Shown: one piece after another, positions 52,291-64,000 of the stretch | How the letters are laid out: each line of letters opens with the position of its first letter | How positions within the stretch are numbered: the stretch's first letter is position 1 | From: Torpedo marmorata | Taxonomy: Eukaryota | Direction: 5' to 3' | DNA: 64,000 nucleotides | Assembly (NCBI GenBank): GCA_977017645.1 | Contig: OZ360220.1 | Span: forward strand, 120,714,001-120,778,000 | Notes under the pieces: model-generated | Database searches by the model: none | Seen by the model: only the letters and a program-made list of their open reading frames with translations | What the model was told of the DNA's origin: nothing | Position numbers and translations under genes: made by a program

Positions 52291-53335
52291 GTTGAGTATT
52301 TCCAACATTTTCTGTTTCAATTATCCTGGAATCCATGCTTCTGTGTACCTCTGTATTGACAATTCTCCGGTTTTGAAGTTCATTTTCAAATCTTGTTGCC
52401 TCAGTTGAATTTTTCTAACAGAGCCACAATCATTAATACTTTCCAAACACAGCAACATAAATGCAAATACTCTTATGCCTGTAATTTAGACTATCTACAA
52501 GGTTGCAAATAGTGTGTGTGTGCTTGTGTGCATGCATGTGTGTGTGTCTCTCTGCTTCTCAGCTGTTTATTTTACTGTTTTCCACATCTGTGTGTGACCA
52601 TGACAGATGTGTAGCCCTGTTAGTGCCTCATGAAAGGAAATAGTCTTTGCTTAATTCAAACTCTGGCAAATATCATGTTTTCACTTTCTTCTCCTGGTTT
52701 AATTCTGATGGGAGCATCAAGATTAAAAATATTGAAATTTAACTATGTGTAAAACCTTCAAACATCAGTGAGAGATTCTTGGACTTCAGTACTGGGTAGT
52801 GAAGGTGTGAGCACAGAGACCTAATGGGCCGTAACACTTACATTGTGCTGTTGACTAATGGACCAGTTGATGCCAAAAATAATTATCTGTTCAACCCTAC
52901 CCTCCCTCCCCAAATCTGGAACATGACATTAAAAGGATGTCATTGTCTGGATCCACAGTTGTATATCAGTTTTATAGACTGTGCAGAGTTTTGCAGATGT
53001 AGTGTTCTTTTTATTCCAGTGGGGAGGTAAGACCTTGTCATTCACATGCATAAATCCACACACATTCTGTGCAGTGCATCAATCAGAGTGAGTTCAGTGC
53101 TTCTAGGCACATGGTTTACTCTGACACTTATCCCTGAGAGGTGTGGTGACAGCACTTACGAGTTGGGCCATTGCCTCAGGCATCCATAATGAATGGATTT
53201 TCTGACTGCAGAGTTTTCTCTCTGGAGATTCTGGCTATTTAGCTGTTGGTTCATGGTGAAAATGGTAACAATGAAGTCTACTTTTTTGATGGAGGTAGGA
53301 AAAGAGTTGATTTGCGTACAGCAGTGTTTTCTTAC

Positions 53336-53519
53336 CTCGGAACTGGGCAGGAGGTCGACACAGAAAGGTGCACTGTTTCCCAAAGGTAGTCCCGTCAGGG
53401 CAGGAGAAGGCAGCAGGGTAGATGTGATACTGGTCAGGGATCCCACAGTCTACTGGTTCGCACAGAACTTGCTGGTTCCATTTTCCATCTGTGCAAGTGA
53501 CTGTCATTTCCAATTTAGA
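53336..53519 (-). CDS. PAPPA: PAPPA internal exon (end of CCP1 and most of CCP2)
   Basis: ttttcag|TCT...CGA G|gtaag; 184 nt; SKLEMTVTCTDGKWNQQVLCEPVDCGIPDQYHIYPAAFSCPDGTTFGKQCTFLCRPPAQFR(G), resembling vertebrate pappalysin-1 (VTCTEGKWNKQVACEPVDC, recalled); phase 1 fits the next exon. Confidence 0.95.
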
Positions 53520-53717
53520 CTGAAAACAAACCACAATATTTTAGGGTATAGAATTATTCAGTGTTGAATCTAGAAGCACCAATCATGGTCGGATTAGAGC
53601 TTCGAGTTTTTGTAAACTGAAACAAAGCCAGATGATTCCCATTTTACTGAGGATCAGCTTCCAATGCTTCCAGCTTTCAGTTATTCCCTGTTATTGGTAT
53701 GGAAAACTGGAACAGGT

Positions 53718-58063: not shown

Positions 58064-61000
58064 CCCAAATACACCAATTAACCTACAATCCCCGTGAGTT
58101 TTTGAAGGGTGGGAAGAAACCGGAGCACCCGGAGGAAACCCACGCAGACACGGGGAGAACGTACAAACTCCTTACAGGCAGCGCCAGATTCAAACCCGTG
58201 TCGCTGGCGCTGTAATAGTGTTGCGCTAACCACCACATTTGTCTAGTTTGTGACATTACCAACCTGGGAAAAAGGATCTGATCACCTACCCTGTCTATGC
58301 CTTTCATAATTCAAAAATTTGTTCGTCAATAATATGAATGTTGTCTTACACCTACCCAGCAGGAATAGAAACATGAGGATTGAATCATCCATGATTGGAA
58401 TAAAAGGAAAGTAACATGAAGCGAGACTATAAACGGTAAACTTTTCCCTTCTTCTCCACCTTATCTACCTGTGTTGCAACTATCACAGCACACAACTTTT
58501 CCATTGAGGAATGGAGATGGCATCTTTCAGGAATTTGACACCAGCACATTTACAATTGTAAGGTTCGGACTTGCTGTATAGTTCAATGACAAAGCATGGG
58601 TGGTTCACTGCAAGGAGGAAATTCAACACTTCAAGTTTGAAACGGCTCGGCACAAACTGTTCATTTGGAGAAATTGACAAAAGAGAAAAAGAACAATTTC
58701 TTTTGCATTTCTCATAATGTGAGAGTTTACTGGCAAGGCCCTTCCTAAATGCCCTGAAGAAGGCAGTGGTGAGCCTCTGTCTTAAACCTCTGCAAATCCT
58801 TTTGGTGAAGGCATTCCCTCAGATCTCCTTCAGGACTTCCTAATTTAGATCCAATGATGATGAAGTCAGGATGATGTGTGTCCTGGAGGGAATTTTAAGT
58901 GGTTGTTTTTCCAAATGCCTGCTGCCTGCTCGGGAATTTTTTGGAAAATTAAGACATTCATATAATGTCTGCACAATGCGTTTTATCTGTTTTGATTTTT
59001 TTTTAAAAAACACTCTTTGTTTGGGAAAATTCAAATCACAAAATATGTTTCCATGCTGACTGTGCCGAAGAAAGCAAACTGCCGCTAGTTTGTGCTCAAG
59101 TCACATCTTGACTCTTCACTTACTATAGATGCTGCGTGACTTGCTCCAGCACTTTTGTGTATTGATAGAAGCAGTTTTTCAGGTTCTGCCTTCCCTCACT
59201 CCTCAACCCTTCTCTTCCCAATTGATGAGCCCATCAATAACCCCAAAAGACTAGAAGTTACACAAGAACTGAAAGGCTTTTATTAGCAAAAGAATGGAGC
59301 TACATTCGTGCTGATGATCTGTCCCGGACTGGGGGAGGAGCAGTGGCACAATGGCCTTTATTCAAGGGGATCTGTGGGAGGAGCCACCGGGACAGTCAGC
59401 AGGGGCATGTCCAGACTTATCACCCAGCCCACAATCCATACACAGTGGTTTACCACATTCACCCCTCCTTTTTAAAAGAGTCCAGCGGGGTGAAGTGTAT
59501 AACAATATTTACAAGAGATTAAAATTACAAATCGAGTCGATCAGGCGGTCGAGTCCGCCGCTGTGATCGGCGCAGTACTTGTGGTGATAGCGGTGATGGG
59601 GCAGGTGGCGGAGCTACCTCCTGCCTGATCTGGGGTACCGGCACGTCTGGCGAAACCTCAGATGAATATGCTGGTGCGTGTGGTGTCGTGTTTGAATTGG
59701 GTGGTGCCTCTTGTGTGTCCTTAATGGTAGGTAAGGGGGTAACCGTAACTACGGGGTGTTCGAGGGCAGCGGCGGGTTCCAGTGCTCCTGCGGGCGCCAG
59801 GTCCCGGATGGAGACCGTGTCTTCCCGCCCATGAGGAAAAACCACGTAGGCGTACTGGGGGTTCGCGTGTAATAATTGGACCCTCTCGACCATCGGGCCG
59901 TATTTATTGCTCCTGACATGTTTCCGGAGCAGCACTGGCCCTGAGGACGTCAGCCATGCTGGTAGGGTAGTCCCGGTGGTCGACTTCCTGGGGAAGGAAA
60001 AGAGTCTCTCATGGGGTGTAGCATTGGTGGATGTACATAGCAGGGATCGGATAGAGTGGAGTGCCTCGGGAAGGACTTCTTGCCAGTGGGAGACTGGTAA
60101 TCCCTTAGACCTGAGGGCTAAGAGTGTGGCTTTCCAGATCGTGGCGTTCTCCCTCTCCACTTGTCCATTACCCCGTGGGTTATAGCTCGTGGTCCTGCTA
60201 GTCGCGATACCCTTGGCCAGCAGATATTGTCGCAGCTCGTCACTCATAAATGAGGACCCTCGGTCGCTATGGATATAGCAGGGGTATCCAAACAACGTGA
60301 AGAGTTTGCGGAGGGCCTTTATGACTGAGGTGGTCGTGGTATTGGGGCAGGGAATGGCGAAAGGGAACCGCGAGTACTCATCAATAACGTTGAGGAAGTA
60401 CACATTGCGGTCGGTGGAGGGAAGGGGGCCCTTAAAGTCGACGCTGAGTCGCTCAAATGGGCGGGTAGCTTTTATTAACTGCGCCTTATCAGGAAGGTAG
60501 AAGTGCGGTTTGCACTCTGCGCAGACTTGGCAGCTGCTGGTCATCGTCCTGACCTCTTCCAGGGAGTACAGTAGATTACGGGCTTTCACAAAGTGAAAAA
60601 GCCTGGTGACTCCGGGGTGGCAGAGGTCACAGTGGAGGGCATATAACCGGTTGATCTGTGCGCTAGCGCACGTCCCCCGGGATAGAGCGTCGGAGGGCTC
60701 ATTGAGCTTCCCGGGCCGGTACATTATATCGTAGTTGTAGGTGGAGAGTTCGATTCTCCACCTCAGGATTTTATCATTTTTGATTTTACCCCGCTGCTGG
60801 TTGCTGAACAGGAATGCGACTGAGCGTTGGTCAGTCAGCAGGGTGAACCTTGTTCTGGCGAGATAGTGCCTCCAGTGCCTGATAGCTTCCACTATGGCTT
60901 GGGCCTCTTTCTCCACTGCTGAGTGCCGAATTTCTGGGCCTTGAAGGGTATGGGAGAAGAACGCCACCGGTCTTCACGCCTGGTTGAGGGTAGCAGCCAG

Positions 61001-61918
61001 TGCGAAGTCGGACGCGTCACTCTCTACCTGGAAAGGAGTGGACTCTTCCACCGCGTGCATTGCTGCTCTGGCAATGTCCCCTTTTATGAGGCTGAAAGCC
61101 TCACGTGCCTCCGTTGCAAGGGGAAAAGTGGTGGACTTGACAAGGGTGCGGGCCTTGTCCGCATAATTAGGGACCCATTGAGCATAGTAAGAAAAGAAGC
61201 CCAAGCACCTTTTGAGGGCTTTGAGGGTGTGGGGAAGCGGTAGTTCCAACAGGGGGCGCATGCGGTCGGGGTCGGGGCCGATGACCCCGTTCTCCACAAC
61301 ACACCCCAGGATAGCGAGTCGGGTGGTTCCGAACACGCACTTATCCTTGTTATAGGTTAGGTTAAGCGCTTTGGCCGCCTGGAGGAACTTCCGAAGATTG
61401 TTATCGTGGTCCTGGCGGTCGTGACCGCAGATGGTGATGTTATCTAAGTATGGAAAAGTGGCCTTTAATTTGTATTGGTCCACCATCCTGTCCATCTTCC
61501 TCTGGAAGACGGATACCCCATTTGTGACCCCAAAGGGAACGTGCAGGAAATTATAGAGTCTGCCGTCCGCCTCGAAGGCGGTGTAGGGGCGGTCCTCCCG
61601 GGGAATGGGGAGCTGGTGGTAGGCAGATTTGAGGTCTATGGTGGAGAAGAGCTTGTACTGAGCTATCTGGTTTACCATATCTGCAATGCGTGGTAGAGGG
61701 TACGCGCAAGCTGCGTGAACCTATTGACGGTCTGACTATAATCTACCACCATCCTGTTTTTGTCCCCGTTCTTGACGACAACCACCTGGGCCCTCCAGGG
61801 ACTTGTGCTCGCCTCGATGATCCCTTCCCCAAGTAACCGCTGCACCTCTGACTTAATGAATGCCCTGTCCCCTGCGCTATATCTCCTGCTTTTGGTTGCC
61901 ACAGGTTTACAATCAGGG

Positions 61919-62081
61919 ACGCCTGCCGGCATTTTCTCATACTTTGATGAAGGGCTCAAGCCCGAAACGTCGGTTATGTATTTCTACCTTTGCTACATAA
62001 AAGACACTGTTTGACCTGCTGAGTTCTCCAGCTTTTGTGTTTTTTACTTCATCCACGGTGTCTACAGATTTTCGTGTTTAC
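61919..62081 (+). mobile_element. 163-bp hammerhead-bearing Penelope-derived insertion in pol
   Basis: 13-bp TSD TTTACAATCAGGG (61906-61918, 62082-62094); removing it restores LTPDCKPVATKSRR. Confidence 0.92.
61938..61978 (+). ncRNA. Minimal type-I hammerhead ribozyme motif (U3 variant), best-preserved copy
   Basis: catact-TTGATGA-a-GGGC tcaa GCCC-GAAAC-GTC-ggttatg: stem I, core, stem II, palindromic ACGT in place of stem III, GUC triplet; activity untested. Confidence 0.65.
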
Positions 62082-64000
62082 TTTACAATCAGGGGTCAGG
62101 TTGGCGAATAGCGATGGGGGCGGGATCTTGAGGGTGGATAGACCGCAAGTAGTGTGGGGTGACAAAATATTCTTGCTGTTTTGAAGGAATTGGTGATTAC
62201 CGACAGTAATCGGTGGGAGGGGCCCGTCATACTCCATAGTCACACTTTGGAGGTGACTCTGGAAGTCGAGCACTTGTAGTACAGGTGCACACAGTCGGGG
62301 CATGACCAATAGCGCGAAGTCCCAGTATTCCATGCCCTGTACCACTATCGTCGCTACACAACCCCCCCGGATGTCTGTTGTGTGCGACCCGGAAGCCATG
62401 GCAACCCTCTGGCTTACCGGCTGTATCGTGAGGCCGCATCGCTGTACCATGTCAGGGTGGATGAAGCTCTCTGTGCTGCCTGTGTCGAACAGGCAGTTTG
62501 TCCTGTGTCCCTCGACCAGAATGTCCATCATCGACCTCGCGAGTTGGTGGGATGCACTCTGGTCGAGTGTAACTGACGCCAACGTTGGGTCGCTGTCTTG
62601 ATCCGACGTTGCGATGGAGTGCCCGCTGTCCCGGGATAGTGGCACCCTGTGTCGGCTCGTCGGCGTGGAACAAAATGGCCGCTCCCATGACTAGCACGTG
62701 TTGGCGGCGGGTAGGTAAGATGGCGGCGACGGAAGTGACGAAACACAAGATGGCCACCCCCATACCTCGCACGTGTTGGCTGCGGCGGCGGGTAGGTAAG
62801 ATGGCGGAGACGGAAGTGACGACACACAAGATGGCCGCCCCCGAGTCTCGCACGCGGCGCTGCTCGATCCCGCTCGCGGTTTAGATCAACAGACCTTAGC
62901 GAAGTGGCCTTTCTTCCCGCAGCTGGAGCAGGTCGCTTCTCGGGCCGGGCAACGTTTCCCGGGGTGCTTCTCAAGCCTGCAGAAATAGCATTTCTCGGGT
63001 TCGCGGCTGATGGCCGCAGTGGTCGATTCACTGGCATGGTGGCGGGTCGGCGGCATTCACGGGGCCTGCTGGAGATCGCGCACCTGGATAGCATCCGAGT
63101 TCTGTAGCGCAGCCTCCAGCGTGTCGGCCAGTTCGATCGCGTAACGGAAGGTAAGGTCAGCTTGTTCCAGCAGCCGCTGGCGCACATACACTGAACTGGT
63201 CCCCGTAACGAAAGCGTCTCTCACTAGGAGCTCTGCATGCTGTTCAGCCGTCAGTCCCCGACAGTCGCACGCCCGCACGAGTGTTTGTAGGGCCCGTACG
63301 AACTCCGCGCTCGACTCCCCGGGCCGCTGCTGCCGCGTCGCTAGCCTGTGTCTTGCGTACACGGTATTCACAGGCCGTATGTACTGTCTTTTAAGGGTAT
63401 TCATCGTGTCCTCATAAGTCTGTAGATCTCGGATCATAGAGTAGACTCGTGGGCTTACCCTGGAGAGGAGGACCTTGCGTTTTGCTGCGTCTTCTTGCAC
63501 TTTGATCTTCTCCAGGAACGATTCAAAACAGACTAGCCAGAGTTCAAAGACATTGCCAGCGTCCGGTGTTTGTGGGTCAATGTCCAGTTTGTCTGGTCTC
63601 AAGATGTTCTCCATGTTTACAATTTTGCCAATAAAATTGATGAGCCCATCAATAACCCCAAAAGACTAGAAGTTACACAAGAACTGAAAGGCTTTTATTA
63701 GCAAAAGAATGGAGCTACATTCGTGCTGATGATCTGTCCCGGACTGGGGGAGGAGCAGTGGCACAATGGCCTTTATTCAAGGGGATCTGTGGGAGGAGCC
63801 ACCGGGACAGTCAGCAGAGGCATGTCCAGACTTATCACCCAGCCCACAATCCATACACAGTGGTTTACCACACCAATAACTTGAGTTTGACCATTAACTT
63901 GATATTTGTAGATGCTCCCTGACTTTCTCCGTTATGTTACATAAGACCATAAGATATTCAGATTCAAATTTATTGTCAGAGTACATACCTGTCATCACAT

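Follow-up and report, generated by a model that had tools for sequence, protein, structure and literature searches.

The primer-binding position of a widespread clade of animal Gypsy retrotransposons pairs with the element's own LTR and is very likely served by a piece cut from the element's own RNA

The question raised by this locus is what primes reverse transcription in a Gypsy LTR retrotransposon that carries no TGG-initiated primer-binding site (PBS) at the junction of its 5' LTR with the leader, an absence noted in the sequence-only reading and borne out here. The element lies on the minus strand at positions 63872-59223 of the window, the whole 64,000-nt stretch of Torpedo marmorata DNA analysed. 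It is recognised as Gypsy by its TG...CA LTRs, target-site duplication (TSD), polypurine tract (PPT) and the order PR-RT-RNase H-IN, with gag, protease, reverse transcriptase (RT), RNase H and integrase being detected by Pfam. Its main parts are the following.

63638..63872, minus strand: 5' LTR, 235 nt, TG...CA, with one difference from the 3' LTR of equal length
59223..59457, minus strand: 3' LTR, from comparison with the 5' LTR
63873..63877, minus strand, second copy at 59218-59222: 5-bp TSD ATTGG, from the sequence
59462..59473, minus strand: PPT, 4 nt ahead of the 3' LTR, from the sequence
59525..63614, minus strand: gag-pol, comprising gag with two zinc knuckles, protease, RT with YLDN, RNase H and integrase, from translation and Pfam
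61906..62081, no strand assigned: host repeat of 176 nt inserted later into pol, from host-genome comparison

The window copy is dead, its gag-pol being broken by several stops in both gag and pol as well as by a frameshift and an insertion; searches of host contigs confirmed the 176-nt insertion in pol as secondary. Its family, designated A, is represented in the 6.2-Gb host genome by at least 1258 copies with the LTR-gag junction kept. The nearest named proteins are from rays and sharks, and relatives at 55-65% RT identity occur in cnidarians, a mollusc, nematodes and an insect. Three imperfect repeats of 75-81 nt (62670-62866) are located between the zinc knuckles and the protease. Elsewhere in the window, an open frame with a Cys-rich stretch (53235-53540, minus strand, thus in the same orientation as the element) gave no Pfam match; it resembles an exon from a gene with CCP/sushi domains, for instance pappalysin.

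Past the 5' LTR end CATCA, the element continues with a single A and a 14-mer (63636-63623); after another 8 nt, the gag ATG follows at 63614, 23 nt from the LTR. All coordinates given for this junction in the sequence-only reading check. The features relevant to pairing are listed here.

63623..63636, minus strand: self-complementary PBS, 14 nt, with G at 63629 (G-U pair) in the window copy, from pairing and family comparison
63693..63706, minus strand: putative primer segment, RNA nt 40-53, partner of the PBS position, from pairing and covariation
63637, minus strand: 1-nt spacer (A), the base that would be copied first; A in 13/15 families, T in 2/15
63644..63692, minus strand: inner stem of GCCU (63692-63689) with GGGC (63647-63644), adjoining the primer duplex, from folding
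63609..63714, minus strand: second helix of CUCCAU (63714-63709) with gag AUGGAG (63614-63609), family A only, from folding
63636..63653, minus strand: U5-end inverted repeat, alternative to the inner stem, from folding

Between the 14-mer and 63706-63693, 13 Watson-Crick pairs and one G-U are formed; a pairing run of 14 was equalled in 6 of 5000 shuffled LTRs and in 49 of 5000 shuffled spacers. In six folds, the inner pairs of this duplex have a probability of 0.93-1.0. The adjoining inner stem reaches 0.7-0.8 in the window element and 0.88-1.0 in the sister family C, and its length summed over 15 families was equalled in 14 of 2000 shuffles. Two further structures had been proposed. The helix between the gag start and CUCCAU does form in the window element (probability 0.6-1.0) but is absent from the host families B and C, ruling it out as a conserved feature and leaving the suggested masking of the gag AUG unsupported as a general one. 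The inverted repeat of the proposed U5-end hairpin likewise exists, in family C too, but the hairpin drops to a probability of 0.00-0.03 in the six folds once the long duplex forms and, being out-competed, is ruled out as working structure. A search of Rfam gave no match.

Within the host genome, the pairing is maintained by compensated changes. The G-U pair is particular to the window copy and does not describe the family, for which U-A is the norm, or C-G in an older subfamily; among exact 76-nt matches, U-A outnumbers U-G by 396 to 12. At the 34-nt junction of family A, G is present in 923 copies and A in 223. The variable pair was scored in 98 distinct family-A copies from four combined searches, in which U-G was deliberately over-represented, as U-A 46, C-G 28, U-G 14 and C-A 5, with 5 unscored. 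The step from C-G in older copies to U-A in the young subfamily represents one compensated change. An excess of U-G intermediates was also considered as proof of templated copying and found uninformative, as 12 versus 396 is near the mutation background (A>G 0.33%, C>T 0.75%) and about half of the U-G copies are on old backgrounds. Family B pairs over 17-18 nt of different sequence with a segment ending in AGTAAA, and a PBS variant recurs at position 17 without compensation. In family C, the first 12 nt are fully paired in 39/39 copies despite four variants, including one position occurring as G-C, A-U or U-A and a change from AATAAA to ATTAAA mirrored in the PBS; a fifth variant is compensated in 6/6 PBS-bearing loci. 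As a separate observation, the 5' LTR breaks of three family-B loci (L262, L263 and L264) almost coincide at GTAG, about 35 nt ahead of the segment, and are flanked differently; the idea of a B subfamily with short LTRs was rejected, as the visible 3' LTRs are full length.

Outside families A, B and C, the same geometry recurs with different sequences, and altogether 15/16 families examined (the three host families, eight from metagenomes and five from genome contigs) pair in the same register, in line with the primer geometry with a 1-nt spacer that had been read from the window copy. Among the metagenome loci, a gag start was found in 9/11, belonging to the eight families, seven of which pair while L069 does not; among the genome-contig loci, 6/8 had a usable gag start, and all five families pair over 10-17 nt. 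For the covariation suggested as a check on the window copy, the register was fixed by the spacer and the AAA end. Across ten families, 71/80 pairs are formed between the own LTR and PBS at positions 5-12 compared with a mean of 40.6 in swaps, a value reached in 0 of 100000 swapped-partner permutations. The five genome-contig families, found after this test, keep the register. Duplex energy was not significant for L070/L071 (196 and 297 of 1000). Pairing extends to position 14 in 12/15 families, and the base after the segment is G in 12/15, where the short inner stem begins more often than in shuffles. No relatives were found among viral contigs or in the first genome-contig scan.

This base-for-base tracking of the own LTR by the post-LTR sequence across families makes it highly improbable that priming there relies on the 3' end or a half of a host tRNA, with the LTR match being secondary. 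A TGG does stand 8 nt beyond the LTR in the window copy and the older subfamily, but the young subfamily has TAG instead, and B, C and 12 other families lack it. In a screen of 27 host tRNA sequences covering 9 anticodon types, the longest run complementary to the post-LTR sequence was 5-7 nt.

Some further regularities accompany the segment. Counted from its 3' end over 15 families, position 10 is G in 14/15 and position 13 is T in 14/15; T-N-A-G-T occurs in 10 families and may be an initiator or recognition site. At segment positions 13-9, this initiator-like motif is present in 8/8 families outside A/C but in 2/5 later families. A primer of 11 nt at the RNA 5' end, as in Tf1, was not adopted, with pairing reaching position 14 in most families and family B over-copying 24 nt; for the invertebrate families, it may still apply. 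A pyrimidine run followed by AG, resembling a splice acceptor, precedes the pairing segment by 0-17 nt or falls within it in L061, L065, L066, L067, L070/L071 and the family-B loci L045, L047 and L060, and is absent in A, C and L062. The latter is a tandem of two elements sharing one LTR, which pairs perfectly with the next PBS over 18 nt. Eight animal-type Gypsy elements (L224-L231) were encountered in bacterial MAGs of GTDB, probably as eukaryotic contamination. The RT active site reads YxDN, not YxDD, in 124/167 relatives, recently amplified families included, and YLDN in the window element (region 61394-61383). No paper mentioning YLDN or YXDN in connection with RT and a retrotransposon came up in the literature search; YVDN is reported in some BEL/Pao Cer elements in the accessible text of PMC554778.

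For locating the segment within the RNA, retrocopies of family-A transcripts in the host genome are informative, providing the following landmarks.

63745, minus strand: likely cap site, A of CCAGT, initiator-like, from the start of retrocopy L272 and the arms of L313 and L321
63772..63777, minus strand: TATA-like AATAAA in U3, 32 nt upstream of the cap site, putative promoter element, from the sequence
63694..63699, minus strand: poly(A) signal AATAAA inside the primer segment, with poly(A) 19-21 nt downstream in L272 and L274
63673..63692, minus strand: R remainder, 18-20 nt, from the cut to the poly(A) site, possibly used in minus-strand transfer, from retrocopies

L272, a LINE-type retrocopy, is a 72-nt LTR copy running from an extra G plus AGUCC, whose A is that of CCAGT (63745), to UGUGU with an A9 tail, and it is flanked by a 13-nt TSD within an L1-type RT frame. 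L274, which starts in U3, shares this poly(A) site. Searching the host for the signal followed by poly(A) yielded 9 matches belonging to 6 loci, of which the remaining four were not used, their ends lying 3-9 nt beyond the fixed part of the pattern in A-rich sequence; a search for further cap-marked retrocopies yielded 32 matches (control 16), and among the 30 read only L272 qualified. These ends put the poly(A) site at about 63675. The cap is likely at 63745, judging from this one retrocopy together with two to three fold-back arms in family A and L327 in family C (see below), and the TATA-like word stands 32 nt from the cap A in both families. Hence, R comprises about 72 nt, the AAUAAA is used and the pairing segment, starting 39 nt downstream of the cap, corresponds to RNA nt 40-53.

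With the signal thus functional, the duplex may have a second role. In folds starting from the 63745 cap, the hexamer is at least 97% paired, while the copy in the 3' LTR is mostly open in 3/4 folds, the remaining fold pairing half of it with host flank. The sequence-only reading had proposed that the 5' poly(A) signal may be masked, and such masking is therefore supported as a likely additional function of the primer duplex; the 3' copy, having no partner, is predicted to remain usable. Hiding of a 5' poly(A) signal is known from the HIV poly(A) hairpin. It is nevertheless very improbable that the duplex only masks the signal and a separate primer is used. Such a function would agree with the occurrence of AATAAA, ATTAAA or AGTAAA in the segment or the PBS complement in 13/15 families and with a working signal predicted to be paired in the 5' context alone. 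However, it leaves unexplained the fixed 1-nt spacer and the missing tRNA site as well as arms ending at the cap, junctions at AAAA/GCC and over-extended PBS copies, all three found in fossil insertions.

These fossils were recovered by searching the host genome for the pattern LTR end, A, PBS and LTR complement, for which control matches were zero. Pattern loci amounted to 15 in family A, 16 in family C (four representing one event, leaving 13 independent) and 4 in family B. In the fold-back structure, U5, A and PBS are followed by the in-register complement of the LTR leader. In family B, one of the four loci is of this type; the other three are ordinary elements, the PBS being lengthened to 24 nt of LTR complement and followed by gag, which argues for a PBS written from the LTR. 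Read on the opposite strand, a fold-back consists of leader, segment and the complement of U5 and the R remainder to the cut, which would be the expected shape of primer plus minus strong-stop DNA. For Tf1, the accessible text of PMC11042837 describes cDNA retaining a PBS tail copied from the primer, an intermediate that would fold back.

In family A, the arms of L313 and L321 end at nt 52 followed by C, the cap corresponding to nt 53, and the arm of L312 breaks within a microhomology covering nt 53-61. A further arm has 129 nt, one has 31 nt and 10/15 reach the U3 start; these full-length arms could stem from DNA fold-back of any PBS-ending plus strand. In family C, 15/16 arms pass through U3, one ends at nt 41 and none at the cap. 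On the left side of the A and C fold-backs, the whole LTR is present in 11/31 loci. Of the 20 truncated left pieces, 8 start between -10 and +1 of AAAA/GCC, five of them (L317, L324, L328, L329 and L333) being joined to element-internal or other LTR sequence as found by BLAST. Without the 5 loci joined via the PBS side or inverted U5, the share is 8/15 with a binomial chance near 2e-7, a figure to be read with the A-run at the cut favouring junctions through microhomology and the start of L317 having been placed by eye. The left flank of L317 is an LTR of a fourth host family with the same AATAAAA/GCC layout, joined to the family-A piece. The clustering points to the following site.

63692..63693, minus strand: predicted cut AAAA/GCC that would free the primer 3' end, putatively by RNase H, from left-piece clustering

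The same primer sequence might also come from another source, namely in trans from a capped R-only RNA of a solo or 3' LTR, from the second genome copy or from the copy of the segment at the RNA 3' end. L272 attests that a capped and polyadenylated R-only RNA existed. Moreover, the arms of L318 and L336-L339 extend further into the PPT and pol, consistent with a primer or template derived from the 3' end of the RNA or with priming in trans, and the left piece of L327 begins at the family-C cap, as from an uncut template. These cases are a minority, however; the 8 left pieces ending at the cut are expected if the template itself is cut, and the probability of the intramolecular duplex is near 1. 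Such a source is therefore regarded as improbable.

The self-priming by an AAUAAA-bearing R segment put forward in the sequence-only reading is hence supported both by covariation across families and by fossil reverse-transcription products. Taking together the conserved and compensated pairing, its fixed register, the working poly(A) signal and the fossil junctions, we consider it very likely that in this widespread animal Gypsy clade the PBS position pairs with the own LTR rather than a tRNA and the primer is a piece cut from the own RNA. The RNA would start at 63745, the position mapped by the fossils, and its nt 40-53, including the AAUAAA, are predicted by folding to pair with the 14 nt one base beyond the LTR. 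Cleavage would then occur at AAAA/GCC (63693/63692), the junction of primer duplex and inner stem, a site deduced from the clustered fossil junctions; by analogy with Tf1, the nuclease might be the RNase H of the RT (PMC7175516, accessible text). RT would extend the capped 53-nt fragment over the spacer, U5 and the R remainder, 56 nt in total, and may subsequently jump to the RNA 3' end via the 18-20 nt between the cut and the poly(A) site. Finally, the plus strand would copy the primer, so that the PBS is rewritten from the LTR segment, with occasional overrun as suggested by the fossils.

In several respects, this scheme is reminiscent of the Tf1/sushi group of chromoviruses, to which the literature, in the accessible parts of PMC7175516, PMC10085805, PMC4600332 and PMC11042837, ascribes self-priming as a trait. 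According to the same sources, Tf1/Tf2 of S. pombe, Tj1, Tosmo and the Tf1/sushi elements likewise use no tRNA, have an LTR-adjacent PBS pairing with their own R, free the primer by a cut, flank the primer duplex with helices and copy the primer as a PBS tail on the cDNA. The primer there lies at the RNA 5' end within a three-duplex structure or 'pretzel' (PMC10085805, PMC4600332); in the leader studied here, the primer duplex and one inner stem are predicted. Whereas the Tf1 primer is the first 11 nt of the RNA, the segment found here is internal (nt 40-53), overlaps the poly(A) signal and has a length of about 14 nt (10-18). Differences extend to the absence of a chromodomain, an RT motif that is mostly YxDN and animal hosts ranging from cnidarians to cartilaginous fish. 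Pfam detected no chromodomain in the window integrase and in 8/8 full-length relatives, and GPY/GPF is absent from the last 260 aa in 88/88 proteins. Because no chromodomain was found, the element is considered to work like Tf1 but is not classed as a Tf1/sushi member.

Two Cys-His boxes (zinc knuckles) in gag are a Mag trait, and two are present in the translated gag of the window element. The Mag lineage (A/B/C clades, SURL, Jule) and the unnamed MolGy clades are non-chromovirus animal Gypsy elements as well, Mag sharing the wide host range and the two zinc knuckles; in the accessible text of this survey, no mention of primer sites was found (PMC6238403). The supplements searched contained no match to the clade motifs. 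Saci2 and lennie of flatworms are also animal Gypsy elements with a single gag-pol frame but are reported to have tRNA primers and 4-bp TSDs, in contrast to the 5-bp TSD and missing tRNA site of the window element (PMC12471100, accessible text). A description of self-priming in non-chromovirus animal Gypsy elements was not found, while Repbase, GyDB and subscription journals, lying outside the search, may hold one.

The findings point to a second, widespread animal lineage independent of host tRNAs, which might consequently be beyond silencing by tRNA fragments at the PBS. Annotation tools requiring a tRNA PBS will miss or mislabel such elements, and the fossils assign the cap, the cut and the poly(A) site to precise positions that can be tested. 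We favour, with some reserve, the more specific reading that a large non-chromovirus Gypsy clade, spread across animals, evolved self-priming independently of Tf1/sushi with a new layout, in which one internal helix would act as primer duplex and 5' poly(A) switch, the primer would be capped and 50-75 nt long, the PBS would be rewritten in each cycle and the RT would be of the YxDN type. In retroviruses, the AAUAAA of the 5' R is hidden by pairing in the poly(A) hairpin, and a U5-IR stem stands beside the priming site. The window element is similar in concealing AAUAAA in 5' R and in placing a stem next to the priming site, but here the PBS itself, located outside the LTR, serves as the partner. 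Masking would thereby be confined to the 5' end, a compact answer to how an LTR element may ignore its own 5' poly(A) signal.
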